Shown: piece after piece, positions 2,594 to 21,918 of the stretch
Numbering within the stretch: position 1 is the stretch's first letter
How the letters are laid out: each line of letters opens with the position of its first letter
From: Anaerolineae bacterium
GTDB lineage: Bacteria; Chloroflexota; Anaerolineae; JAAYZQ01
Direction: 5' to 3'
Length of the DNA stretch: 25,667 bases
Assembly (NCBI GenBank): GCA_035461725.1
Contig: DATHUZ010000505.1
Coordinates: forward strand, 1 to 25,667
The notes under the pieces: generated by a model
The model's input: the letters and a program-made list of their open reading frames with translations, nothing else
The model's database searches: none
What the model was told of the DNA's origin: nothing
Translations under genes and position numbers: made by a program

Positions 2594-5500
2594 ATGGCAA
2601 ACCAGGCGGCGCGCCTGCTGCCGGCGGCCGGCCTGTGCCTGCTGGTGCTGGTGGCCAGCACCGCGGTGACGACGGGCCGGGCGCTGCCGGGCACGGCACC
2701 GGGCGCCGTGCTGATTCACGAGCTGGAGTATGACCCGCAGGGCAGCGATGCCGCCTGCGAGTGGTTTGAGCTGTACAATGCCCTGACGACGCCCATCGAC
2801 CTTGCTGGCTGGCGTGTGCGCGACAATTATGCGGCCGACGTGCTGCCCGCCCTCACCCTGCCGCCGGGTGGCGCGGCGGTGGTGGCGGCCAGCACGAGTT
2901 TTTACGACAACTATCCGGCCTTTACGGGCACGCTGGTCGTGCTCGGCAGCCCGATCGGAAATGGGCTGAACAACGATGGAGACCGCCTCATCCTGGAGGA
3001 CGCGGCAGGGAGCGCGGTGGATGCCCTGTCGTATGGGGCCGACAGGACGATCCTCGACTGCGGCGGCTATCCGTGTGCCGGGGTGCCGGAGGGAAGCTCG
3101 CTGGAGCGCGACCCCGCCGGGCGGGACACCGACACCGCGGCCGATTTCGTCGCGCGCCAGGCGCCCACGCCGGGACGGATCGTGACACCCCCGCCCGCCA
3201 CCGCCGACCTGCGCGCGGGAAAGAGCGGGCCTGCCACCACCCCGCCGGGGGCGGTCATCACGTACACCATCACTTTGAGCAACGCGGGCCAGGTGGCGGC
3301 GGATGGGGTGTGGATCACCGACACGCTGCCGGCGGGTGCCGCGCTGATCTGGCACAGCGCGCCCTACCCGGTGGTTCAGCCAGGGCCCGGCACCCTCGCC
3401 TGGGCGGTGGGGACCGTACCGACGGGGTCGGGAGCTGTGCCGCCGGTGCAGTTTGAACTGGCCGTGCGCCTGCCCGCCGATGCCGCGGGCGAGGTGGCGA
3501 ACGTGCTGACGGCGACGACGACGACGGGGGAAGCGAACCCACTCGACAATGGGGCGACGGCCGTGACCCAGATCGAGGAGCTGCCGGGCGGTGCCCCTGT
3601 CCTGCTCGAGGCGATCTACTACGACGGGTATGCCGCGTACGATTACGACGAGGCGGTGCGGCTGGTGAACGTGGGCAGCGGCACGCTGGAGCTGGGTGGG
3701 TGGAGCCTGGGGGAACCGGGGGTGCAGGCCAGGGCCACCTTTGCGCCGGGCACGCAGCTTGAGGCGGGGGAACGGATCTGGTGCGCGCGCAAGGCGACGG
3801 CGTTCGAGGCGCAGTTTGGCTTCAAGCCCGACCTGGAAACGGACGACACGGATCCGGACGTGCCCGAGATGGAAGGAAGCTGGCCCGGCCTGGCGAACGA
3901 CGGGGGCGCGTGCGTGCTGCGCGACCCCGACGGGCAGGTGATCGACGCGGTGGTGTATGAAGGTGGGGACCCGGACACGTCCGGCTGGAGCGGTCCGGCG
4001 GTGGTGCCCTGGGCGTCGGGCGGCTACTTTGGCGCCGAAGGGCAGATCCTGTACCGGAAGCGCGACGAAGGGACGGGCCTGCCCTGGTCCGGCCCCGTCA
4101 CGACGACGGTGACGGCCTGGGCGCAGGACCCGGCCGACCCGGTCGGGGGGCGGCGGGTGCTCTATCCGGGCTGGGACCTGGACCGGTTTTTTGCGACGGC
4201 ACGCGTCACCGAGACGGCCGGCCTGGTCGTGGCGATTGCTCCCGATCACCTGCTCGAGGAGGTCGTGGCACGGCTCGGCACGGCGCAGAGCTCGATCCTG
4301 ATCGAAGCGTACACGCTCGAGAGCCGGGCGGTTGCTGACGTGCTGCTCAACAGGCTCGCGGCGGGGGTGCAGGTGAGCATACTGCTGGAGGGCAGCCCGG
4401 CGGGCGGGATAAAGAGCGCGCAGCGGTGGATCTGCAACCAGCTCCGGCTGGCAGGGGCGAACGTGTGGTTCATGTACGCGGGCGCCAGCCACGCGCGCTA
4501 TCGCTACCAGCACGCCAAGGTGATCGTGATCGACGACCGGCTGGCGCTGATTGGCACGGAGAATCTCAACCCATCGGCGATGCCTGCCGACGACAAGGCG
4601 AACGGCACGGCGGGCAGGCGCGGCGTGTACCTGATGACAGATGCGCCGGGCGTGGTGGAGCGGGTGCGCGCGGTGATCGAGGCGGACCTCGACCCCGATC
4701 ACCACGCGGACCTCGTCACCTGCGCCGACGTGCCGGAGCTGTGCAGCGGAACGGTGCCGCCGGCCGAGCCTGATTGGGTGACGTACACGGTCGCTTTTTC
4801 GTCGCCGCTGGTCGTGCGCGGCAAGATGGCCTTCGAGGTGGTGCAGTCGCCCGAGAACAGCCTACGCACGTCCGACGGGCTGCTTGGACTGCTGGCGCGG
4901 GCGGGGGCCGGCGACACGGTGCTCGTGGAGCAGTTTTACGAGCACGCCGCGTGGGGCGACGCCGGCGCCACGCCCGAGGATGATCCGAATCCCCGTCTCG
5001 AAGCGTACCTGGCGGCGGCCAGGCGCGGCGCCCGGGTGCGCATTTTGCTCAACCGGCACACGTTCGACGATTACGAGAATGAAAACGTGGCCACGGCCGC
5101 TTATCTGCATTCTGCAGCCAGCGGGCTCGATTTCCAGGTCCGGCTGGGCGACCCGACGGCACTGGGCCTGCACAACAAGATGGTGCTGGTGCACGCGGGC
5201 GGCAAGGGGATCGTGCACATCGGCAGCATCAACGGCAGTGAGGTGTCGTCGAAGGCAAACCGCGAGCTGGCGCTGCAGGTGCAGAGTGACGCGGCGTACG
5301 ACTATCTCGCCGCCCTGTTCGCCCACGATTGGGCTGCCTCGCCCCTGCCGGTCTATCTGCCCCTCGCCTACAGGGGGTGCGCCCTGCCCTCGCCTGCAGG
5401 ATACCCTCTCATCACCGAGCTGTTCTACGCGGTTTCGAAGGAGCAGGAGTGGGTCGAGGTCGGCAATCCCACATCCGAGGCGATCGATCTGTCGCGGTTC

Positions 5501-5932
5501 ACGATCGGCGACGCCCAGCGCCCCGACAGTTACGAGGGGATGTACGTGCTGCCTGCCGGCACGGTGCTCGCGCCGCAGCAGGTGCTGGTGATTGCCAGCT
5601 CGGCGGCCGCGTTCCGCGCGGCGTACGGGGTGCCCCCCGATTTCGAGTTCTACGAGACAGACGGCACGGTGCCCACACTCGCCCGCGCGCCGCTGTGGGG
5701 CGAGGGAGAGTGGGAGCTGCGCGGTGACGGCGACGAGGTGCTGCTGCTCGACACGGCAGGCCGGTGGGTGGACGTGGTGGTGTATGGCGACTCGCACCTG
5801 CCAGGGGTGGTGGCGCACCCGGGCGTGGCCTTTGGGCACTCGCTCGAGCGTTTTCCGGCGCGATTCGACACAAATGACTGTGCCGTCGATTTTCGTGACC
5901 AGCCCTTCCCGAGCCCGGGAAGGGTGCCGTAA
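2594..5932 (+). CDS. Secreted multidomain protein: lamin-tail domains + DUF11 + phospholipase D-family (two HKD-type motifs), 1112 aa
   Basis: Signal peptide; LTD motifs (LIHELEYDP...EWFELYN, LLEAIYYDG...EAVRLVN, LITELFY...EWVEVGN); DUF11-like ADL..GKSGP...ITYTITLSN.G...ITDTLP; PLD motifs HAKVIVID...GTENLN and HNKMVLVH...GSING. Confidence 0.88.
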   Translation: MANQAARLLPAAGLCLLVLVASTAVTTGRALPGTAPGAVLIHELEYDPQGSDAACEWFELYNALTTPIDLAGWRVRDNYAADVLPALTLPPGGAAVVAASTSFYDNYPAFTGTLVVLGSPIGNGLNNDGDRLILEDAAGSAVDALSYGADRTILDCGGYPCAGVPEGSSLERDPAGRDTDTAADFVARQAPTPGRIVTPPPATADLRAGKSGPATTPPGAVITYTITLSNAGQVAADGVWITDTLPAGAALIWHSAPYPVVQPGPGTLAWAVGTVPTGSGAVPPVQFELAVRLPADAAGEVANVLTATTTTGEANPLDNGATAVTQIEELPGGAPVLLEAIYYDGYAAYDYDEAVRLVNVGSGTLELGGWSLGEPGVQARATFAPGTQLEAGERIWCARKATAFEAQFGFKPDLETDDTDPDVPEMEGSWPGLANDGGACVLRDPDGQVIDAVVYEGGDPDTSGWSGPAVVPWASGGYFGAEGQILYRKRDEGTGLPWSGPVTTTVTAWAQDPADPVGGRRVLYPGWDLDRFFATARVTETAGLVVAIAPDHLLEEVVARLGTAQSSILIEAYTLESRAVADVLLNRLAAGVQVSILLEGSPAGGIKSAQRWICNQLRLAGANVWFMYAGASHARYRYQHAKVIVIDDRLALIGTENLNPSAMPADDKANGTAGRRGVYLMTDAPGVVERVRAVIEADLDPDHHADLVTCADVPELCSGTVPPAEPDWVTYTVAFSSPLVVRGKMAFEVVQSPENSLRTSDGLLGLLARAGAGDTVLVEQFYEHAAWGDAGATPEDDPNPRLEAYLAAARRGARVRILLNRHTFDDYENENVATAAYLHSAASGLDFQVRLGDPTALGLHNKMVLVHAGGKGIVHIGSINGSEVSSKANRELALQVQSDAAYDYLAALFAHDWAASPLPVYLPLAYRGCALPSPAGYPLITELFYAVSKEQEWVEVGNPTSEAIDLSRFTIGDAQRPDSYEGMYVLPAGTVLAPQQVLVIASSAAAFRAAYGVPPDFEFYETDGTVPTLARAPLWGEGEWELRGDGDEVLLLDTAGRWVDVVVYGDSHLPGVVAHPGVAFGHSLERFPARFDTNDCAVDFRDQPFPSPGRVP

Positions 5933-11441: not shown

Positions 11442-12311
11442 TTACCCAGCGTCCTCGACGAGGGAACGGAGGATGCGCAGGTTCTCTCTATCTTCTTCCA
11501 GGTCAGGCCCCTTGTCGGTTTCGAGAGTCATGGGGATGCCGCGAAAGCGCGGGTCGTTGAGGAGACAGCGGAACGGCTCGAGGCCGAGCTGGCCGTGGCC
11601 GATGTGGTCGTGGCGGTCGACGCGGCTGCCCAGCTCACGCTTGGAGTCGTTGAGGTGGATGGCCTTTAGCCGCTCCAGCCCGAGCACGGCGTCGAACCGG
11701 CTCCAGGTGGCCTCGTAGCCCTCGCGGGTGCGGAGCTCGTAGCCGGCGGCAAAGGCGTGGCACGTGTCGAAGCAGATGCCGAGGCGCTCGGGCTCGCGCA
11801 CGCAGTCGATCATCCCACGGAGCTGCTCGAAGGTATACCCCAGATGATCGCCCTGGCCGGCGGTATTCTCCAGCCACACCTGCGCCCTGTGTCCGGGCAG
11901 CCGTCGGTGGACCTCCTCCAGTCCCTGGCTGATGCGGGCGAGCCCAACCGCCTCGCCGGCGCCCTTGTGCGAGCCGGGGTGGATCACCAGGCCGGGCAGA
12001 TCGAGCTGCTCACAGCGCTCCAAGTCGTCTACCAGGGCGTCGATCGATTTATGCCACAGCTCGTCGTCGGTGGTGCCCAGGTTGAGCAGGTAGATAGCGT
12101 GCGCAAAGACGGGGGCGATGCCAGTCTCACCGAGCATGGCACGAAAGGCGGCGATCGCCTCGTCGTCGAAGGGGGGCGACTTCCAGCGGTTGGGGTTCTT
12201 GACGAAAATCTGGATGCAGTCGCACCCCACGTCGCGCCCGCGCTCGAGCGACTTGTCGAGGCGGCCAGAGGTGGATTGATGGGATCCAAGGAGTAACCTG
12301 GGTGTGGTCAT
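11442..12311 (-). CDS. nfo: Endonuclease IV (AP endonuclease)
   Basis: LGSHQS..G, QIFVKNP, HAIYLLNL, HPGSH, LENTAGQG, CFDTCHAFAAGY, HLNDSK, DRHDHIG, LET motifs; SD GGAAGGAG. Confidence 0.95.
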   Translation of the reverse strand: MTTPRLLLGSHQSTSGRLDKSLERGRDVGCDCIQIFVKNPNRWKSPPFDDEAIAAFRAMLGETGIAPVFAHAIYLLNLGTTDDELWHKSIDALVDDLERCEQLDLPGLVIHPGSHKGAGEAVGLARISQGLEEVHRRLPGHRAQVWLENTAGQGDHLGYTFEQLRGMIDCVREPERLGICFDTCHAFAAGYELRTREGYEATWSRFDAVLGLERLKAIHLNDSKRELGSRVDRHDHIGHGQLGLEPFRCLLNDPRFRGIPMTLETDKGPDLEEDRENLRILRSLVEDAG

Positions 12312-12325
12312 GGGCTCCTTCCACG

Positions 12326-12904
12326 TTAACTCTTGTCGGGGGCCAGGGTGAGCCGGCCACGGGTGGCGGTGGCATCTTCGAACAACGCCAGGACGTAGAG
12401 CAGGGAGGAGAGGCGGTTCAGGTAGCGCACCACCTCAGGGTTGTGGAGCAGGCCGTCATCGACCAGGCGGACGGTGTGGCGCTCGGCGCGGCGCACGACG
12501 GTGCGCGCCAGGTGGAGCGCGGCGCCGGGCAGGCTGTCACCGGGAATGACAAACTCGGACGGCATCTCGACCTGCGGCGCAACCTGCGCGATCCACTCCT
12601 CCAGCCGGGCCACGCCGGCGGCGGTTACCCGGCCGGCGAAGGGGTTGCCGGGGTCGCCGGCGGCCGCCAGCTCGGCCATGAGGGTGTAAAGGTCACGCTC
12701 GATCTCGATCACGAGCTGGCGCGTCGCCGTCGACGCGCCGGTGGCCCGTGCCAGGCCGAGGGCGGCCTGCGCTTCGTCGACGGTGCCGTACGCCTCGGGC
12801 CGGAGGTCGTACTTGGGCACGCGCTCGGGGCCGAGCAGGCCAGTGCGGCCATCGTCGCCCCGGCCTGAATAGAATTCCGATTTGGCCGTAGCCCGCGTTT
12901 GCAC
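12326..12904 (-). CDS. pduO: Cob(I)alamin/cob(I)yrinic acid diamide adenosyltransferase, PduO type
   Basis: YSGRGDDGRTGL, EAYGTVDE, LHLARTVVRRAER, YLNRLS motifs. GTG at 12904 chosen because the ORF-track start at 12940 overlaps pfpI. Confidence 0.88.
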   Translation of the reverse strand: MQTRATAKSEFYSGRGDDGRTGLLGPERVPKYDLRPEAYGTVDEAQAALGLARATGASTATRQLVIEIERDLYTLMAELAAAGDPGNPFAGRVTAAGVARLEEWIAQVAPQVEMPSEFVIPGDSLPGAALHLARTVVRRAERHTVRLVDDGLLHNPEVVRYLNRLSSLLYVLALFEDATATRGRLTLAPDKS

Positions 12905-12911
12905 GGCTGCC

Positions 12912-13433
12912 CTATTCACTGAGCGCGGCGACGATGGCACGGCAGAAGGCGGGCAGGTCGGCAGGCGTACGCGACGTGATGAGGTTGCGGTCGACGACCA
13001 CTTCCCGGTCGACGTACTCGGCGCCGGCGTTGATCATGTCGTCCTTGATGGCGTAGAAGCAGGTGGCCTGCCTGCCCTCGAGGATGCCGGCAGAAGCCAG
13101 GACCCAGCCGGCGTGGCATATGGCGGCCACGACTTTGCCCTGGCGAAAGGCGTCGCGCACTAACTGGAGCACGGCAGGGTAGCGGCGCATCAGGTCGGGC
13201 GCATAGCCGCCGGGGACGACGACGGCGTCGACGTCGTCGGCGCTGACCTGATCGGCGGCGACGTCGACCTGGACGGGATAGCCGTGCTTGCTGGTATAGG
13301 TATCGGCACTGCCGGTGCCGACGACAAAGGTCTCGGCGCCCGCCTCGCGCAGGCGCAGGAGCGGGTACCAGAGCTCGAGCTCCTGGTACATGTTTTCGGC
13401 CAGTACGGCCACGCGTTTTCCTTCAATTGCCAT
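12912..13433 (-). CDS. pfpI: PfpI/DJ-1 family protein (type 1 glutamine amidotransferase-like), 173 aa
   Basis: ELELWYP, VPGGYAPD, nucleophile elbow AICHAG, DRNLITSR.PADLPAF; SD AGGAGG. Confidence 0.92.
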   Translation of the reverse strand: MAIEGKRVAVLAENMYQELELWYPLLRLREAGAETFVVGTGSADTYTSKHGYPVQVDVAADQVSADDVDAVVVPGGYAPDLMRRYPAVLQLVRDAFRQGKVVAAICHAGWVLASAGILEGRQATCFYAIKDDMINAGAEYVDREVVVDRNLITSRTPADLPAFCRAIVAALSE

Positions 13434-13516: not shown

Positions 13517-13545
13517 AGTATAGCAGGGAAGGCACCCCGTGGCAA
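13517..13545 (-). promoter_or_regulatory. Sigma-70 promoter of the pfpI-pduO-nfo-TPR operon
   Basis: Minus strand TTGCCA (13545-13540), 17-nt spacer, TGn-TATACT (13522-13517). Confidence 0.7.
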
Positions 13546-13563: not shown

Positions 13564-15852
13564 CTAGAAGAGGGGGATCTGGACGCCTTCGCGCTCTACG
13601 ATGGGGTCGAGGCCGACGATGGTGCGCAGGACGTATTCGTCGACGTCGGGCTCGCCGGCGAGCTGGCGGACGTGACGGTACTTGATAAAGTGCCAGCCGG
13701 CGGCATCGACGGCGCGCTGCCAGATGGGGTTGTGGGCGAGCTTGTAGGCGGCGAGGGCGGCGCGCCCGCCCGGCAGGACGAGGTAGCGCTGGGCGGCGGG
13801 CGGCAGGTGGTCGAGGGAGAAGGCCTCGCTGAGGGCGGCCTGCCAGTGCACGGCAAAGAGGGCATGCCAGTGGGCTCCCTCTTTCCAGGCAACGTCGAAG
13901 GGACCCTCTGCCACGGGCGTGTATCCCAACCGCCGTCCAAGCAGGTGGAGCTGATCGATCACAGACGCCCGCTCAGCCTCGCGGGCGCCCGGCCCATCCT
14001 CTGGACGGAGCTGCCAGTGACCGGGCGAGGCTTGGTGGGCGTAGGCGCGCAAGACCAGGGCGACGAGGTCGGGCTCGGGCGCCAGGGGCCCCGGAAAGCG
14101 CTCGTAGATGGCCTGCGCAAACTGGAGCTCGGTAAGGGCGAGGGTGGTTTCGAGCAGATCGTAGGCCGCTGCTTCGACGCTGTCGGACAGCGGGGCGGAC
14201 AGGCCGGCAGGCTCGGCAAGCCAGTAAAATGGATCGCCGCCGCCAGGTGCCGGCAGCGACAGGATCGCGGGGGTTTCGCGCGCGCGCCGCGCCACCGCCA
14301 CGGCGCGGTCGAGGGGGCCCGGTTCTGCCGCGTCGGGCGCGGCGGCGAGCAGTCCTGCCTGTGCCAGGGCGGTCCAGATGGCGGCGTGGAGTGTGGGCCA
14401 GCGGACAGGCTCGCCGCGGGCCCGGATCGCCTCGACGGCGGCGTCGATGGCCGTGCGCTCCATTTCGAGCTCGAGGTCGGGGGAGTGGGGAAGTGAGGAA
14501 GTGGGGAAGTGGGGAGTGGGTGCGAGCACGAGGCGGTGGCCCGTGCCGCTGTGGGCCAGGGACAGGACGCGTGTGGTTGAGGCGCCGGCCGCGGTGAGCA
14601 AGCTCTCGACGACGGCGGGCGGCCGGTCGTGGAGGACAAACACCAATCTGCCGTCGCCGGCGAGCAGGTGGGCGAAGGAGCGGAGCGACGAGGCCAGGCC
14701 AGCGGCGTACCAGCTCGCGTCGGAGGTGCGCTGCTGGAGGAGGGGGCGGAGCGGCGCCACGGCCTCAGCGCCGAGCAGCCACGCCCCCCAGAGGTAGGCG
14801 AGGGACCAGATGGGTGGGTCGAGTGGGGGCGGGGCAGTGAGGAGCAGGGGCAGGCTGGACGGGGGCACCAGGCGAGCGGCATCGCGCACGACGTGCTGGC
14901 CCACGTAGGCACTCCAGTCGCCACCGGCGGCCGACAGGCGTGCCGGATCGAGTGCCAACCCGGCGACAGGCGGCCCGGCCATGGCCACGAAGCGGTCGAC
15001 CGCCTGCTGGAAGGCGAGCCACACGTTGCGCTCGACGAAGCGGGGCTGGGCGACGAGCCGCTGGCGAGGCGGGCGGCGCTCGTCGCCGCCGGCCTCGGGC
15101 GCCAGGGCGGAGCAGCGATCGAGGCAGTCGAGAAGGAGCACCTTGAGCGCGTCGCGCAGGGGGCCGGCGTCAAAGAGGGCCTCCACTTTCATGGTCAGCT
15201 CGACGAGGGCGTAGAGGCTGCGCGGTGAGTAGAGGGTGAGCAGCTTTTCGATGCTCGCCCTGAGGCGGGCGTCGGTGCCGCGCGGCGCCAGCCTGTCGAG
15301 CAAAAAGTGATAGTGCAAACCACGCGGCTGCACCTCGTCGAGGCGGGCGCGGTCCTCGGCGTCGGCGGCGGTGGTGCCATCCCAACTGCACGCGGCGCAC
15401 TGCACGCGTTTCGTGACCGGCACGGCGGCGTCGCGATCCCAGGTGTACTCGGAGGCGACGGCGGGACGCAGGCAGGCGGGACAGGTGGCGGTGTAGAGGC
15501 GTTCGAGGTAGCGGCGGAGGGGGATGCCCTGCTTGAGGCTGTCGCCCAGACGGGCGACGGCAGCGTCGAGCTCACGCGGTGGGGGCGGGGCGAGCGACGC
15601 GCGGACGAGGAGGACCACCAGCGGGTCAAAGTTGAGGGCGACGGCACGGCGGCCCTCGGCGAGGACGTCGCGCACGACGGCGGCGTCCTGGCAGTAGGGG
15701 ATGAGGACGAGATCGCCGGGGCGGGTGTAGGCGCGCACGTAGGCGGGCGCCACGCCGGCGGGCACGGGGGCGCGCAGGCGTGCGGCGATGGGCCCGGGCA
15801 GGCCGGGAGTGGGCCCTCTTTCGCCAGGGACAAAGTAGTCGATATCGTTCAT
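13564..15852 (-). CDS. Degenerate Zn-ribbon adenine DNA methyltransferase-like protein, 762 aa, C-terminal QIPLF
   Basis: TRPGDLVLIPYCQDA...GRRAVALNFDP aligns by eye to MTase motif I (DPFxGSG lost). Cys pairs CPAC and CAAC; LLLTAPPP at the DPPY position; GRLVFVLHD. Start placed at ATG 15852 (MNDIDY) because a promoter lies just upstream. Confidence 0.75.
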   Translation of the reverse strand: MNDIDYFVPGERGPTPGLPGPIAARLRAPVPAGVAPAYVRAYTRPGDLVLIPYCQDAAVVRDVLAEGRRAVALNFDPLVVLLVRASLAPPPPRELDAAVARLGDSLKQGIPLRRYLERLYTATCPACLRPAVASEYTWDRDAAVPVTKRVQCAACSWDGTTAADAEDRARLDEVQPRGLHYHFLLDRLAPRGTDARLRASIEKLLTLYSPRSLYALVELTMKVEALFDAGPLRDALKVLLLDCLDRCSALAPEAGGDERRPPRQRLVAQPRFVERNVWLAFQQAVDRFVAMAGPPVAGLALDPARLSAAGGDWSAYVGQHVVRDAARLVPPSSLPLLLTAPPPLDPPIWSLAYLWGAWLLGAEAVAPLRPLLQQRTSDASWYAAGLASSLRSFAHLLAGDGRLVFVLHDRPPAVVESLLTAAGASTTRVLSLAHSGTGHRLVLAPTPHFPTSSLPHSPDLELEMERTAIDAAVEAIRARGEPVRWPTLHAAIWTALAQAGLLAAAPDAAEPGPLDRAVAVARRARETPAILSLPAPGGGDPFYWLAEPAGLSAPLSDSVEAAAYDLLETTLALTELQFAQAIYERFPGPLAPEPDLVALVLRAYAHQASPGHWQLRPEDGPGAREAERASVIDQLHLLGRRLGYTPVAEGPFDVAWKEGAHWHALFAVHWQAALSEAFSLDHLPPAAQRYLVLPGGRAALAAYKLAHNPIWQRAVDAAGWHFIKYRHVRQLAGEPDVDEYVLRTIVGLDPIVEREGVQIPLF
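14479..14521. repeat. G-rich 8-nt tandem repeat inside the methyltransferase-like gene
   Basis: gggggagt ggggaagt gaggaagt ggggaagt ggggagt gggt: four 8-nt units plus one 7-nt unit make 39 nt, so the frame is preserved. Encodes a Pro/His/Ser linker (PTPHFPTSSLPHSP). Confidence 0.8.
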
Positions 15853-15861
15853 AACGACGGT

Positions 15862-15890
15862 AGTATACCATAAATCGGAGGCCGCGGCAA
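15862..15890 (-). promoter_or_regulatory. Sigma-70 promoter for the methyltransferase-like gene (near-leaderless)
   Basis: Minus strand TTGCCG (15890-15885), 17-nt spacer, TGn-TATACT (15867-15862); only 9 nt to the ATG and no SD. Confidence 0.65.
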
Positions 15891-15986
15891 GGTGGGTGGC
15901 AGTCGGAGGGGGGATTGCTGGCGCTCTCGCAATGACAGGTTGGCGAGGGGCAGGTGCGATTGCTCGCCGCAACGCGCGGCAGGCGC

Positions 15987-16015
15987 TTGCCAAAAGCCCT
16001 CATCCCCGTTATAAT
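15987..16015 (+). promoter_or_regulatory. Sigma-70 promoter for the lipoprotein genes
   Basis: TTGCCA (15987-15992), 17-nt spacer, TATAAT (16010-16015). Confidence 0.7.
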
Positions 16016-16046
16016 GGGGACGAACGTGGAGGACAATGAGAGACTT

Positions 16047-16831: not shown

Positions 16832-16864
16832 CTGCCTTCTGGCATAGGGTATGCCGGGTGGCAG
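16832..16864 (+). other. Intergenic stem-loop between the two lipoprotein genes (no U-tract)
   Basis: ctgcc..ggcata-ggg-tatgcc..ggcag imperfect hairpin; could be an mRNA stabiliser or a weak terminator. Confidence 0.4.
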
Positions 16865-16995
16865 GCTATAAGGAACCGGCGGCCGGGAGAAAGCCAAAGC
16901 GGAACCGGTTGGGAGCGGCAAGCGTCCTAGATGCAGGCTGGGCCTGTCTCCGGCTGTCATCGTTTGCTTCAGCGGTGTGTGTGTGGAGGCTTGGA

Positions 16996-19900
16996 ATGCG
17001 CTGGCCGAGATCGCTGCAACTGCTGTTGGTTGTCCTTCTCTTCGCCGCCTGTGCGGAAAAAGCGGCGCCGATGCCTGTGGCTACAAGTCTCGCAACCGCG
17101 ACACCCGTGACCGGGTCTCGTATGGCGTCGATCCCGACAGAGGTCACGAAGCGTACATCCACCTCGACGGCTGCCCCTACCCGTCGCACCGAACCGACGA
17201 GACGGCCCGCCTCGCCAACCGCTACCAGGGTGGCGCGCGTCGACAGAGCCTGGCCCAGGCCTCTGGCCGCGCTCGACCTGGGTGTGCCCGCCGGCAACAG
17301 CTACGGGCCACGTGCGGTCGTGATTCATCCTGACCTACGCCGCCTGTACGTACGGACTCGACCGCCGGTTGCCTATGGGAATGAACCGGGAACCATAACC
17401 GTCATCGATCTCGAGACAGAACAGGTGCTGGACGTGGTCGCGACCGGTCCCGATGGTTACGCCGATGGCGATCTGATCATCGACAGCGTGCGCGACAGAG
17501 TGTACGCCCTCAACCCCGGAGACACGACGGCGACGGTTCTCGACGCCGGCACGCTGGAGACGGTGCGCACGATCGAGGGCGTCGACCGGCTGGCCGTGGA
17601 CGAGGACGCGGGGACGGTCTATATCGCCGGCCCCGTCAGCCTGCGTGCGCTGGATGCCGAGACGCTCACGCTCGCCGGCGATAGAGCGCTCGAAGCGTCT
17701 CGCTCGCTAGCGCTCGAGGTGGATCCGGCCGGCGGTCGTCTCTACCTGACGCACGAACAAATGGGCGGCGGCTATGCGCTGACCGTTTTCGATGCCGCCA
17801 CCCTCGACCGGCTCACGACCGTAGCCCTGCCCGGCGGGCCCGACGATCTGGTCGTGGCCGCCGACCGGCAACAGGTGTTTGTTACCTTTAACGACGGGGA
17901 GCATAATCTTTTGTGGGTGCTCGATGCCGACGGTAGCGTGCTGGAAGAGTCGACGCTGGGCGAGTGGACGCAGCACACGTACCTGGCCCTCGATGCCGCC
18001 GGGGGGCGGCTGTTTCTCTCGCAGGATGCCTACAACAAGGAAGGGGTGTTGGTGCGCGATCTGGGGACAGGCAGGATGGAGCGCCTGGTGGACCTGGAGC
18101 ACGCGCCGGGCCGCCTGGCGTGGGACCCGACCGGCGGGCGCCTGTTTGCCAGCCTGACGTACGCAGACCGTCTCGCCGCCATCGATCCACGAACGGGCGA
18201 GGTGAGCGGTGTGCTGCCGACGGCGGTGACGCTGGTGGACGTGGAGGTCGATCCGGAGCGGGGACATCTGCTGATAACGGACAGTGCGGGGCGGCTGCAC
18301 GTGCTAGAAAGTGACGGGAGCCGCGAGGTGGCGCTGCTGGAGGGCGAGGGCGAGATCGCGGTCGACGGCCGCAACGGCCGGTACTATACGGGAGGAGGGG
18401 GTGCGCGGCAGGTGCGCATCGTGGACGCGGATGCGCTCGAGCTGACCGGCACGATCGACACCCGCGCCGTGCCCGTCGCCGACCCGTATCACGACGATAC
18501 TCTTTACCTCGTGCGCAATGGCGTTTATGTAGCGAGCCTCGAGACGCTGACGATCACGATGGCGATCTCGGACACGCTGCCGCAGAGCCCGGGTTTTTCG
18601 CCGAATCCGGCGGCGGTGGGGGCGCTGGTCGATCCAGACAGTGGACAACTGCTCGTCCTGATCAACAACGGGATTCCGGGCTCGAACAATGGCAACTATT
18701 TGCACGTGTATGAGCCGGACAGCTATGAGCGGATATTCGAGGATTTCGAGCGCAGCCCGGTCTATCTCGACGTGGACCCAACGAGCGACCGCGCCTACGT
18801 GGCGCGCATCCGAATGGACAAACGCTCGGTCAGCCAACTGGTGAATGGGCGCGAGTACGCGGACCGCATCGACGGGCTGTTCGGCCCCCTGTACGTCGAT
18901 CCAGGCCTGGGCCTCGTTTACCTGAGCACCACCGACGAGAACGAGGGGCACCTGGTGCTGATCGACGGCGCCAACCTGAATGTGGTGGGCAGTGTGCCGA
19001 TCGCGGGCGGGTTTTCGCTGCGCGCGCTGGACACGTCGCGCCACCTCCTCTACCTGGCGACGAGGGATGGGCAGCTGGAGATCTGGGCGGCGACGGGTGG
19101 TGATCGGCCGGAGGATGCACCCCCGGTGCGGGCACCGCTGTCGGTGGATCCGGGCGCGCGGCTACACGTCGCGCCCGGCACCGATTCGGTCTTGGCCGGC
19201 AGCCTCTACCGGTCCGACGATGAGGGACGCACCTGGCACTTTCTCGGGACCGGCCTGCCGGCGGGCGGGGTGGGCCACCTCGCCGTGTCACCCGCTTTCG
19301 ACGACGACGGCACGCTGTTCGCGGCGCAGGCAGTGGGCAGCCGTGGCAACCTCGGCGTCTGGAAGTCGGATACAGGGGGCCGCACCTGGCGCATGGCGAA
19401 CAACGGTCTCGACGACCTGTCCATCGTCGATCTGGCCATCTCGCCTGCTTTTCCCGGCGACGGCACGCTGTTTGCGCTGACGCGAGACCAGGGCCTTTTC
19501 CGGTCGACGGATGGCGGTGAGGCGTGGGAGCCGCTGGCCGACCGCTACCTGCCGGCCGATGCCGGCTCCGACTCGCCCAGGTTGATCGCCATATCGCCGA
19601 CGTATCGAGACGATCAGACGCTCTACGTGGCCCACCAGGGCCTGCACCGCGCAACCGACGGGGGTGAGACATGGACCCAGGTGGTGGATACAGGGGCAGA
19701 GGCGCTGGCCCTGGCGCCCGACTATGCGACGAGCCACACGCTGTATGGCTGGTTCGGGCACGCGGGCTTGCTCCGCTCGGGGGATGGGGGTGACAACTGG
19801 CAGCCGGTCAGCGCCGGGCTGTTGATCGAAGGTTACGGTGTCCCTCGCCTGTTTCTGCCGGCAAGCAGCATCGGCGGCAACACGGTCTACTTCTTGTGGG

Positions 19901-21918
19901 AGACTCACACACCGGGTGAGAGGCCGCAGATCTGGCGCTCAACAGACGCGGGCGAGACGTGGCAGCGCCTGGTTGGGGCCGTGCCGGAGCCGCTCACGCG
20001 CCTGGAGCTGGCACCCGATGGCGCGGCATTCGTGGGCCTGGACGAGATGGGGCGCGTCAGGCGCTGGCCGGTGGCGGATATGGCCTGGGAGGTGCCGGCG
20101 CTGCCCCCGCTGGCAGAGATCCAGTTCGACCGCATCGCGCTGCCACCAAACTTTCGTGGCGATGTAGAGACGGCGTCGACACAGCGTGTGCTCTATGGCG
20201 TGAGCCAGATGGCGGGCGTGCTCTTTTCGCCTGACGCGGGCCTCACCTGGACGGCCACGGGCTACCCTCATCGCCACCTGTTCGGGGCGCTCGACGCGCT
20301 GCTCGCGCTGCCGTCGGGCGAGGCGCTGGCGGCCACACAGATGGGCCTGTACCGCTACGATCCGGCGCGGGGGTGGGCGGTCGTCGAAGGAGGGCTGCCG
20401 GCGGGCGGCGCAGTGACAGGGCTGGAGAGGGGAGAAGATGGCGCGCTGCGCCTGCTCGGGGAGAAGGGCGAAGAGCTGTCGATCTATATGTCCGTCGACG
20501 AAGGCCATACCTGGACCGAGCCGCTGCCGCCGCTGCCGGTACCCGCGGTCGCGGACGACTGGATCTTTTCGCCGGCTTTTTCCACGGACCGGACGGCGTT
20601 CCTGGCGGTGTCGCAGGGCAGGCCGTTACGCAGCAGAGGCGGCGGAGCGTGGGAAGAGGTGGGCCCCCCCGGTGACTGGTACCTGTCGGCCCTGGACGTA
20701 TCGCCGGCGCTCGACCAGGACGGTCTGGTCTTGATGCGCACAGACACCAATGTATTGTGGCGGTCTCTTGACCTGGGCGATACATGGCAGCAGATCGGTG
20801 GAGCGTGGCCCGCGGACGTGGCACCGACGGGTATCGCCCAGGGATCGGGCTACCGGCTGCCGGCGCTGACCTTCTCGCCCGATTTTGGCACCGATCGTGT
20901 GGCCTTGACGAGGGCGGGAGGTACCCTCTACCGCTCGGCGGATGGAGGAGAGACGTGGACGGCCGTGCTGACCCTGGCTCCGGGGATGGTACATACCGCT
21001 TTTTCGCCCGCCTATGAGGCGGATGGGGTCATCTACCTGGTGCAGGGGGAAACCGTGTACCGCTCTGCAGATCGGGGCGCCTCGTGGCAGGAACTGCCAG
21101 GGGCAGCGTGGAGCGCCTTCGAGGAGATGCAGATCGAGATCTCGCCCACTTTTGCGCGGGCTCGAACGCTGCTCGCCTGGAACCTGGGGGGACTGGTCTA
21201 CCTTTCGGACGACGCGGGTGGCTCGTGGCGCGCTGCCTCAGCAGGGCTGCCGCCCAACGGCCTCCGGCAGGTGACCTTCTCACCGGCCCATGCTGACGAC
21301 GGCCTGATCTATGCCGCGCCTTACCAGGGGGGCATCTACCGCTATGCGGGTGACGGTGCCTGGGTGCTCGCCACGCAGGCGACGGGCAGACCACGCGCCG
21401 CGCCGGCACCCACTGCCACGCCGCCCCGTCCTCCCGCTGTGGCGCCGACTCTCGCGCCCACGCCGCAGTGCGAGGTAACACCGGAGCGGTTTGCCGACCT
21501 GTGGCAGGTGCAGGCCGCCAGACTCGGCTGTCCTGTGGAGCCAGAGCGGCAGTTGACGCTCGCCGTACAGGCATTCGAGCACGGGCTCATGATCTGGGAC
21601 TCGGAAGAGCGGGCGATTTATGTGCTGCTTGACGGCGGCACGTGGCAGGCGCTCGAAGACAGGTGGCAGGAGGGGGTGGACCCGGCTTACGATCCCGATC
21701 TGCCGCCACCGCCTCGCCAGCCACAGCGCGGCTTTGGCAAGGTGTGGCGCGAGGCCCTCGGTGGACCCGACGCGCAGATCGGCTGGGCCGTGGAGGTCGA
21801 ACGGGCCGTCGCCGGCTGGCAGCAAGGGTTCGAGCGCGGCCGCCTGTACTGGACCGACATGGCAGGTGGGACCGTCTTTTTGCTGTACGACGATGGAAGC
21901 TGGCAATCGATCAAGTAA
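16996..21918 (+). CDS. Large surface lipoprotein: YVTN/YncE-like propellers + BNR/Asp-box propellers + LGFP-like C-terminal domain, 1640 aa
   Basis: SD GGAGG, then MRWPRSLQLLLVVLLFAA-C lipobox; S/T/P linker; YVTN-like blades; about 12 SxDxGxTW Asp-boxes; second PT linker; C-terminal Q.FEHG.MIW...QRGFGKVW...IGWA...Q.FERG.L.W. The ORF-track start at 16858 is an over-extension. Confidence 0.88.
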   Translation: MRWPRSLQLLLVVLLFAACAEKAAPMPVATSLATATPVTGSRMASIPTEVTKRTSTSTAAPTRRTEPTRRPASPTATRVARVDRAWPRPLAALDLGVPAGNSYGPRAVVIHPDLRRLYVRTRPPVAYGNEPGTITVIDLETEQVLDVVATGPDGYADGDLIIDSVRDRVYALNPGDTTATVLDAGTLETVRTIEGVDRLAVDEDAGTVYIAGPVSLRALDAETLTLAGDRALEASRSLALEVDPAGGRLYLTHEQMGGGYALTVFDAATLDRLTTVALPGGPDDLVVAADRQQVFVTFNDGEHNLLWVLDADGSVLEESTLGEWTQHTYLALDAAGGRLFLSQDAYNKEGVLVRDLGTGRMERLVDLEHAPGRLAWDPTGGRLFASLTYADRLAAIDPRTGEVSGVLPTAVTLVDVEVDPERGHLLITDSAGRLHVLESDGSREVALLEGEGEIAVDGRNGRYYTGGGGARQVRIVDADALELTGTIDTRAVPVADPYHDDTLYLVRNGVYVASLETLTITMAISDTLPQSPGFSPNPAAVGALVDPDSGQLLVLINNGIPGSNNGNYLHVYEPDSYERIFEDFERSPVYLDVDPTSDRAYVARIRMDKRSVSQLVNGREYADRIDGLFGPLYVDPGLGLVYLSTTDENEGHLVLIDGANLNVVGSVPIAGGFSLRALDTSRHLLYLATRDGQLEIWAATGGDRPEDAPPVRAPLSVDPGARLHVAPGTDSVLAGSLYRSDDEGRTWHFLGTGLPAGGVGHLAVSPAFDDDGTLFAAQAVGSRGNLGVWKSDTGGRTWRMANNGLDDLSIVDLAISPAFPGDGTLFALTRDQGLFRSTDGGEAWEPLADRYLPADAGSDSPRLIAISPTYRDDQTLYVAHQGLHRATDGGETWTQVVDTGAEALALAPDYATSHTLYGWFGHAGLLRSGDGGDNWQPVSAGLLIEGYGVPRLFLPASSIGGNTVYFLWETHTPGERPQIWRSTDAGETWQRLVGAVPEPLTRLELAPDGAAFVGLDEMGRVRRWPVADMAWEVPALPPLAEIQFDRIALPPNFRGDVETASTQRVLYGVSQMAGVLFSPDAGLTWTATGYPHRHLFGALDALLALPSGEALAATQMGLYRYDPARGWAVVEGGLPAGGAVTGLERGEDGALRLLGEKGEELSIYMSVDEGHTWTEPLPPLPVPAVADDWIFSPAFSTDRTAFLAVSQGRPLRSRGGGAWEEVGPPGDWYLSALDVSPALDQDGLVLMRTDTNVLWRSLDLGDTWQQIGGAWPADVAPTGIAQGSGYRLPALTFSPDFGTDRVALTRAGGTLYRSADGGETWTAVLTLAPGMVHTAFSPAYEADGVIYLVQGETVYRSADRGASWQELPGAAWSAFEEMQIEISPTFARARTLLAWNLGGLVYLSDDAGGSWRAASAGLPPNGLRQVTFSPAHADDGLIYAAPYQGGIYRYAGDGAWVLATQATGRPRAAPAPTATPPRPPAVAPTLAPTPQCEVTPERFADLWQVQAARLGCPVEPERQLTLAVQAFEHGLMIWDSEERAIYVLLDGGTWQALEDRWQEGVDPAYDPDLPPPPRQPQRGFGKVWREALGGPDAQIGWAVEVERAVAGWQQGFERGRLYWTDMAGGTVFLLYDDGSWQSIK

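Follow-up and report, generated by a model that had tools for sequence, protein, structure and literature searches.

Can a restriction-modification enzyme lose both of its active sites and still be retained as part of the replication and repair machinery? This question is raised by a protein encoded on the minus strand of a 25,667-nucleotide stretch of DNA, hereafter the window, from an Anaerolineae metagenome-assembled genome (MAG; contig DATHUZ010000505.1, assembly GCA_035461725.1). A preliminary description, made from the letters and a list of translated open reading frames (ORFs), had proposed that its 762-amino-acid (aa) product is a domesticated pseudoenzyme derived from restriction-modification. 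Our analysis supports that proposal, with the fold, the ancient loss of motifs and the conservation of the C-terminal tail all in its favour, and every motif quoted at the time was found in the translation (aa 51–57, 339–343, 124–127, 152–155, 639–673 and 758–762). We conclude that the protein is probably a domesticated, doubly inactivated methyltransferase–nuclease fusion of restriction-modification origin that is tethered to the β clamp and binds DNA, without enzymatic activity, in replication-coupled repair or surveillance.

A methyltransferase fold with altered motifs

The full-length AlphaFold model of the protein (predicted local distance difference test (pLDDT) 80.7, predicted template modelling score (pTM) 0.75) contains a seven-stranded Rossmann methyltransferase fold that is split by a 220-residue insert, in which a Zn ribbon is combined with a helical domain. 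When the model was compared by VIA-align, it gave Z scores of 15–17 to Trm11, Trm14, TrmN and TrmI over about 165 aligned residues, with Trm11, Trm14 and TrmN at up to Z 17. A profile of the family aligned by hhalign with six canonical PF01555 Zn-ribbon methyltransferases at a probability of 100% (E 2e-39; aa 19–435, about 400 columns). Both results place the protein in the class I Rossmann methyltransferase fold, in agreement with the methyltransferase-like scaffold of the preliminary description. The six canonical paralogues (L023–L028) were traced via weak six-frame matches in other Anaerolineae genomes; all carry PF01555 and show the permuted order motif I, Zn ribbon, motif IV, and the hhalign alignment places their motifs and those of the family column by column. 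Among structural neighbours in the AlphaFold database and the ESM Atlas, proteins named 'DNA methylase N-4/N-6' came first and DUF1156 proteins next. The Zn-ribbon methyltransferase scaffold that had been proposed therefore stands, but COG1743/DUF1156 as its specific type does not, PF01555-type enzymes being nearer.

Searches with sequence alone recovered little of this relationship. Pfam and NCBIfam scans of the window protein gave no match, a six-frame PF01555 search of the genome did not detect the gene, which stays below the Pfam gathering threshold, and family-profile sequence searches of the Protein Data Bank (PDB) returned noise only. A weak PF01555 match is still present in 9 of 58 family members, and PADLOC reported only a weak MTase_II match for the window protein (aa 30–107, E 1.5e-5). 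Foldseek comparison of the full-length model with the PDB likewise gave weak matches only (E above 0.02) because the protein is multi-domain; folding the C-terminal half alone resolved the fold there.

Within this scaffold, the motifs of an active enzyme have been replaced. Motif I reads PGDxVLDPFCGSG in the canonical paralogues, VLDPF[GCA]x[ST]P as the family consensus and GDLVLIPYCQDA in the window protein. Both glycines of the (D/E)PFxGSG loop are replaced across 139 mostly short-form members, and in the window (IPYCQDA, aa 51–57) the Asp has become Ile and the two Gly have become Gln and Ala. The acidic residue of motif II at the end of strand β2, an invariant Asp in the canonical enzymes, is N74 in the window protein, and this column is mixed in the family (N/A/S/D), with Asp in only 17 of the 139 members. 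Motif IV is FTDPPFG in the canonical paralogues, T[AS][PL]P[RP][PL][ND] in the family and TAPPPLD in the window (TAPPP, aa 339–343); the change from DPPF to APPP removes both the polar first and the aromatic last residue. A canonical motif IV, (D/N/S)PP(Y/F/W), was found in none of the 139 aligned members and in none of eight aligned long forms, a group of longer homologues introduced below, and six long forms scanned end to end contain no such tetrapeptide anywhere in their sequence. The long forms do retain a Gly-rich motif I loop, DP[FW]GRGGW. The four Zn-type cysteines, which the preliminary description had reported as retained (CPAC, aa 124–127; CAAC, aa 152–155), are near-invariant: C124, C127, C152 and C155 are kept in 139, 139, 138 and 137 of the 139 members, respectively.

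By these alignments, the loss of motifs I, II and IV is ancient and not a matter of recent decay. The N-terminal half of the window protein thus appears, at the level of sequence, to be a catalytically dead methyltransferase scaffold, and we infer that it has lost both S-adenosylmethionine (SAM) binding and catalysis.

Winged helices and a nuclease-like domain

Folded alone, aa 455–762 gave a model of two winged helices followed by an α/β domain (pLDDT 92.6, pTM 0.89). The α/β domain resembles solved structures modestly, with AF1548, both BspD6I subunits and Hna at Z of about 6 and FokI at a Foldseek E value of 2e-3. ESM Atlas neighbours that share the overall architecture (TM 0.72–0.85) carry PF01555 together with PF27126 (NmeDI_C). 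A family-profile search also recovered homologues of 860–1,000 aa, here called long forms, in other classes of the phylum; these are annotated PF27126, and it is through homology to them that the window domain is linked to NmeDI_C. One long form retrieves 1,801 relatives, of which those listed are annotated PF27126 and those with a named source come mostly from Candidatus Limnocylindrales.

The preliminary description had likened the segment GRRLGY...FDVAW...LFAVHWQAA (aa 639–673) to a PD-(D/E)xK core that has lost its acidic residues, and comparison with the long forms supports this reading: distant relatives with NmeDI_C read D..FEVEW..ER where the window clade reads FAVHW..GR. In full, the long forms keep DCxW...FEVEWTA...APERTELVRHK almost invariantly, whereas the window clade shows FDVAW...FAVHWQA...PGGRAALAAYK. 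The catalytic acidic set D...E-x-E/K...E is accordingly broken in the window protein. D653 is retained, and the other three of the four acidic positions seen in the long forms (FEVEW and PER) are gone, with E667 replaced by A, E669 by H and E696 by G. The basic residues R697, K704, K724, R726, H727 and R729 are invariant in the same clade, a pattern consistent with a nuclease fold that was retained to bind DNA.

A conserved, predicted clamp-binding motif at the C terminus

Clamp-binding motifs take the forms Q-φ-x-[L/M]-[F/L] and Q-φ-x-[L/M]-x-[F/L] and often lie at a free C terminus (2024 review, PMC11139829). The last five residues of the window protein, QIPLF, match the published pentapeptide definition and lie in a predicted disordered terminus, with low model confidence for aa 748–762 in both the full-length and the domain model. 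The preliminary description had made its proposal depend on conservation of this ending, and the ending is conserved. In the last five columns of 139 diverse members, Q occurs in 137, followed by L, I or M, a variable position, L (115) or M (15), and F (70) or L (46). An exact Q-φ-x-[LM]-[FLIW] end is present in 215 of 257 full-length members, and 232 of the 257 have a canonical penta- or hexapeptide within their last 12 residues, most of the other 25 being near-matches. Variants such as QIPLPL and QLTLPL represent the known hexapeptide form. Among the long forms, 118 of 120 have the motif, mostly with two or three residues after it. The motif is thus maintained down to 25% identity and across classes, and it is absent from the C termini of all six canonical paralogues. 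Just before the terminal pentapeptide lies a conserved GLDP.

Such an ending is rare in the genome from which the window comes. The pattern Q[LIM]x[LM][FLIW] occurs within the last nine residues of only 9 of 10,858 stop-to-stop ORFs of at least 150 aa, and just two of these nine ORFs are credible genes: the one studied here and dinB. The DinB (Pol IV) of this genome (G000:C84:8081–9190, plus strand), a classical clamp client, ends in QLRLL. We predict that the QIPLF tail binds physically to the DnaN clamp.

Distribution and selection

Full-length homologues at 50–75% identity to the window protein number more than 200, with a length of about 755 aa; all are annotated as hypothetical and all come from Anaerolineae MAGs. 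An exhaustive search of 50%-identity representatives returned 1,095 matches, 329 of them below 1e-30, which extend down to 25% identity at near-constant length. Altogether, more than 1,000 intact full-length homologues were recovered, all named hypothetical, and the Anaerolineae branch carries no Pfam domain. The protein family is specific to Chloroflexota.

The gene was found once in the MAG of the window, which is 71% complete. In 201 genomes of the class, taxonomic families for the most part either have the gene throughout or lack it altogether. Among 301 Chloroflexota genomes it occurs in 66, with individual families at 15 of 15, 18 of 19 and 7 of 8, and others at 0 of 18 and 0 of 21. Against the closest relative (74% identity), the ratio of non-synonymous to synonymous substitution rates (dN/dS) is 0.24 overall at a dS of 0.65, and it is similarly low in the methyltransferase-like part (0.24), the winged helices (0.30) and the nuclease-like part (0.22). 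Purifying selection, the replaced motif I glycines in the 139 members and the lack of a canonical motif IV in every member examined agree with the earlier statement that motif loss is not recent. Judging from presence and substitution patterns, the gene is conserved, follows taxonomic families and is not decaying.

Genomic context

Downstream of the gene, on the same strand, lie pfpI, pduO and nfo. The nfo ORF, which had been labelled a 'xylose isomerase-like TIM barrel' (11442–12311, minus strand), encodes deoxyribonuclease IV (Nfo), scoring 283 bits against TIGR00587 (cut-off 130). The gene–pfpI–pduO–nfo string was seen again in about 20 related genomes. Six sister genomes (L081, L060, L062, L066, L072 and L004), one of which is the closest relative, have dnaX–ybaB–recR directly upstream on the same strand, and in them (pfpI)–pduO–nfo follows the gene. 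A promoter-like site with an extended −10 element (TG-n-TATACT) at 13517–13545 (minus strand) overlaps the 3′ end of the gene in the window and would drive pfpI separately.

The long forms have a different neighbourhood. All nine Limnocylindria loci share one arrangement: polX, a single intervening gene, a small tetratricopeptide repeat (TPR) protein and then the long form. This TPR protein, of about 280 aa and with no NCBIfam match, ends 7–196 bp upstream of the long form on the same strand in each of the nine (L045–L050 and L055–L057; for example, L047:6182–7015), and polX lies about 1.8 kb further upstream; the TPR protein may be a partner subunit of the long form. In the Anaerolineae families f37 and f57, the neighbours are unrelated housekeeping genes, encoding a CAP-domain protein, a cation efflux protein, a penicillin-binding protein and inositol-phosphate synthase, so that no operon partner is common to all clades. 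Replication or repair genes do, however, figure in three distinct contexts, each confined to its own clade. Response-regulator/GAF and ABC-ATPase genes were clustered at many loci, but these clusters were set aside as paralogue noise, as their distances and strands vary.

The remaining genes of the window are housekeeping genes, for an rpoD-like sigma factor, a DEAD-box helicase, a TPR protein, a giant BNR-repeat protein and lipoate and proline functions. The window contains no restriction enzyme, specificity subunit or mobile-element gene, and its gene content thus confirms that no restriction partner is present, as the preliminary description had stated.

A model and its alternatives

In the model that we favour, the ancestor would have been a single-chain enzyme of the restriction-modification type, in which a Zn-ribbon N6/N4 DNA methyltransferase was joined to two winged helices and an NmeDI_C-type PD-(D/E)xK nuclease. 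In the Anaerolineae clade of the window, both catalytic centres would have been lost, even though the whole protein is under purifying selection. QIPLF, carried on a flexible tail of about 12 residues, would insert into the hydrophobic cleft of the DnaN β clamp in the way that the Pol IV tail does, and docking would enrich the protein locally where clamps sit at forks or repair patches. Duplex DNA would then be engaged, without being cut or methylated, by the Zn ribbon with its target-recognition-like insert, by both winged helices and by the basic face of the dead nuclease. In replication-coupled repair, the protein may serve as a sensor, an adaptor or a clamp-occupancy factor.

Several observations weigh against this model. 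About half of the sampled Anaerolineae genomes do not have the gene, and replication can therefore proceed without it. The associations with neighbouring genes are confined to particular clades, and in the window itself dnaX–ybaB–recR is not upstream, its place being taken by a divergent gene that begins near 15954–16030; together with the separate promoter-like site of pfpI, this leaves operon membership unproven. In addition, the loop that replaces motif IV (P342, R/P343, P/L344 and N/D345) and D51-P52-F53 are conserved through much of the family, which could point to residual ligand binding or a non-canonical activity.

This last observation bears on whether a clamp-bound protein might still be an enzyme. 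It could methylate in a non-canonical manner via its D-P-F and P-P-R-P-N loops, for replication-coupled maintenance methylation as in DNMT1 and PCNA, or cut DNA with a rearranged nuclease active site. Such an enzyme would account for the conservation of the replacement motifs LDPF[GCA]x[ST]P and [PL]P[RP][PL][ND], for the retention of D653, K704 and K724, and for long forms that combine a Gly-rich motif I with intact acidic nuclease residues. However, the Asp and both glycines of motif I, the motif II Asp and the polar first and aromatic last residues of motif IV are all missing from the window protein; three of the four acidic nuclease positions of the long forms are gone, and PF01555 does not detect the protein. 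We regard retained catalysis as very unlikely. A somewhat different doubt concerns the tail, as Q-φ-x-L-F is a short motif and the conserved GLDP upstream implies constraint beyond the pentapeptide. The tail might instead contact another partner or the protein itself, or serve as a degron, in which case the protein would bind DNA or act as a regulator independently of the clamp. Yet the ending matches both published motif forms exactly, is kept down to 25% identity and across classes, sits at the extreme C terminus on a low-confidence tail and is shared in its own genome only by DinB, and the neighbours include replication and repair genes, among them the clamp-loader gene dnaX. A role for the tail away from the clamp thus seems unlikely.

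Descent from methyltransferase and restriction-endonuclease domains, and the weak PADLOC match to MTase_II, would also suit a decaying restriction-modification or defence remnant that is in the genome by chance. Features of such systems, namely linked partners, patchy or mobile spread and active motifs, were not seen; the neighbours are housekeeping genes and the distribution is bound to lineages. More than 1,000 intact full-length homologues, a dN/dS of 0.24, a single occurrence in a 71%-complete genome and the absence of partner and mobile-element genes all speak against decay, and the conservation data effectively refute this reading.

Long forms and mismatch-repair genes

All 30 sampled genomes of families f65 and f88 (loci L029, L031, L035, L036, L045–L050 and L055–L057; source names of relatives point to Limnocylindria) encode a long form of 920–1,000 aa with intact nuclease-like residues and the clamp motif. 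MutL_C was detected in 257 of the 301 Chloroflexota genomes and in none of these 30. MutS_I was absent from the same 30 genomes, which are 92–99% complete, and NucS_C gave marginal partial matches in them, none convincing. Both MutS and MutL are present in the genome of the window and in four complete Anaerolineae genomes. The MAG of the window contains two MutS_I-containing ORFs of about 890 aa (G000:C803:2624–2962 and C551:328–657) and two MutL_C matches; with 4% contamination, these duplicates may reflect a strain mixture or a real duplication.

The pattern in the 30 genomes recalls NucS, a PD-(D/E)xK nuclease that needs a C-terminal clamp peptide of five residues for its activity and that occurs where MutS and MutL are lacking (PMC8228993). 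We regard the long form as a candidate replacement repair nuclease. By extension, the family could amount to a third clamp-dependent system of post-replicative repair, one with its origin in a restriction-modification enzyme. The long form would be a clamp-activated repair endonuclease with its dead methyltransferase module as a base-flipping lesion or mismatch sensor, and the Anaerolineae short form would have descended from it with loss of the nuclease centre and been kept on the clamp as a sensor or adaptor beside MutS and MutL. We consider this wider scheme quite unlikely as a whole. A strict rule linking an intact nuclease to the absence of MutL was rejected, as family f72 (L034 and L037) has intact residues together with MutL, and most genomes of family f66 have neither MutL nor the protein family studied here. 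A general loss of many repair genes has been reported for Limnocylindraceae (PMC13212565); that MutS and MutL are missing there may be part of this wider loss and not a replacement by the family studied here, and f65 and f88 may represent a single evolutionary event.

Gene structure and coordinates

The strand of the gene, which the preliminary description had left unstated, is the minus strand, and the ORF runs uninterrupted from the ATG at 15852 to a TAG stop at 13566–13564, as described. A longer reading from a TTG start would give 809 aa; we place the start at the ATG because orthologues begin M-x-x-I-x-Y-F-V-P-G. The promoter that had been assigned to the gene was recovered as a σ70-like consensus match (Table 1), one of three σ70-like sites in the scanned region where 0.2 were expected. 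Only 9 nucleotides separate the end of the −10 element of this promoter-like site from the ATG, which suggests a leaderless or near-leaderless mRNA. The window has a G+C content of about 66%. A terminator-like hairpin inside the gene (14261–14233) was discounted, being no more than expected by chance. Two very large secreted-type proteins encoded on the plus strand of the window are unrelated to the finding: one of 1,112 aa with lamin-tail domains, DUF11 and PLD (2594–5932) and one of 1,686 aa with BNR/sortilin repeats (16858–21918).

Table 1 Features of the gene, its product and adjoining DNA in window coordinates.
Feature	Coordinates	Strand	Basis
Gene, 762 codons plus TAG stop	13564..15852	minus	ORF translation
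Promoter-like site TTGCCG-17-(TG)TATACT, σ70-like, extended −10	15862..15890	minus	Consensus match only
Rossmann methyltransferase-like domain, N-terminal part, aa 23–87 (strands β1–β2, motif I and II remnants)	15592..15786	minus	Model, fold comparison and hhalign
Motif I remnant GDLVLIPYCQDA, aa 46–57 (canonical paralogues PGDxVLDPFCGSG)	15682..15717	minus	Alignment
Motif II remnant AVALNFDP, aa 70–77 (canonical ribose-binding Asp aligns with N74)	15622..15645	minus	Alignment
Insertion, aa 88–310: Zn ribbon and helical target-recognition-like domain, common to canonical Zn-ribbon methyltransferases	14923..15591	minus	Model and hhalign
Zn ribbon, aa 120–160 (C124, C127, C152, C155)	15373..15495	minus	Family alignment
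Rossmann methyltransferase-like domain, C-terminal part, aa 311–450	14503..14922	minus	Model, fold comparison and hhalign
Motif IV remnant LLLTAPPPLD, aa 336–345 (canonical paralogues FTDPPFG)	14818..14847	minus	Alignment
Winged-helix domain 1, aa 455–547	14212..14490	minus	Model, pLDDT 92.6; VIA-align Z 8 to cullin WHB and forkhead-type winged helices
Winged-helix domain 2, aa 553–617	14002..14196	minus	Model; VIA-align Z ~7
Restriction-endonuclease-like α/β domain, aa 618–747, homologous to NmeDI_C domain of long-form relatives	13612..14001	minus	Model and alignments
Flexible C-terminal tail LDPIVEREGVQIPLF, aa 748–762	13567..13611	minus	pLDDT <50 in full model, 52–63 in domain model
Predicted β-clamp-binding motif QIPLF, aa 758–762	13567..13581	minus	Motif match (definition PMC11139829) and conservation
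Downstream neighbours: pfpI deglycase 12912–13433; PduO-type adenosyltransferase 12326–12940; nfo deoxyribonuclease IV 11442–12311	11442..13433	minus	Context; co-transcription not implied

Comparison with known systems

The clients of the β clamp are a small and well-studied set that comprises polymerases, ligase, MutS, MutL, Hda, NucS and some transposases. In the full-text literature, we found no description of the family studied here or of a bacterial clamp-tethered methyltransferase-like protein. If its predicted clamp binding is real, the protein would represent a new class of client, a restriction-modification-derived pseudoenzyme, and a large unannotated family would add both this class and a new route of origin to the set. 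A selfish defence enzyme would then have been domesticated into the replication and repair machinery, with the clamp-docking peptide as the best-conserved short motif of its family. The family also offers a natural series, from nuclease-intact long forms in two families without detected MutS and MutL or a convincing NucS to nuclease-dead short forms in Anaerolineae with MutS and MutL, which could show how those lineages maintain replication fidelity. The clamp reading makes an easily testable prediction, that the tail peptide binds DnaN.

Among known proteins, the body is closest to the Zn-ribbon N6/N4 DNA methyltransferases (PF01555; order motif I, insert, motif IV), with which it shares the Rossmann fold, the Zn ribbon (LYxTxCxxC), the helical insert and the ExNVW and LWxxWL segments. 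Those enzymes have DPFCGSG, the motif II Asp, TDPPFG and no QLxLF end, whereas the window protein has IPYCQDA, N74 and TAPPPL and adds to this body two winged helices, a dead nuclease domain and the clamp motif. The adenine methyltransferases of the COG1743/DUF1156 type are structural neighbours in the AlphaFold database clusters (E 5e-13 to 5e-8, TM about 0.3–0.4), but they rank below the 'DNA methylase N-4/N-6' proteins and there is no DUF1156 sequence match. The nuclease-like domain is homologous to that of long forms annotated with the R.NmeDI C-terminal family (PF27126) and weakly resembles the folds of the PD-(D/E)xK-type structures AF1548, BspD6I and FokI; it differs from PF27126 in having FAVHW for FEVEW and GGR for PER.

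The use of a DNA-modifying fold as a non-catalytic DNA-binding or recruiting module, or its tethering to a sliding clamp, has precedents in the eukaryotic DNA methyltransferase relatives DNMT3L and DNMT1 (the latter through its PCNA-interacting peptide (PIP) box) and in the alkyltransferase-like (ATL) lesion sensors; these belong to different folds and lineages, and we draw on them by analogy only. In overall design, the protein resembles NucS/EndoMS, in which a PD-(D/E)xK-type domain is likewise joined to a DNA-binding module and a five-residue C-terminal clamp peptide, and the long form shares with NucS its occurrence where MutS and MutL are missing. The two have no sequence or domain homology, however, and the window protein lacks the nuclease residues and coexists with MutS and MutL. 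With Pol IV (DinB) and other clients that carry a C-terminal clamp motif, it shares Q-φ-x-[L/M]-[F/L] at a free C terminus, but here the motif is attached to an unrelated body, one with no predicted enzymatic activity.

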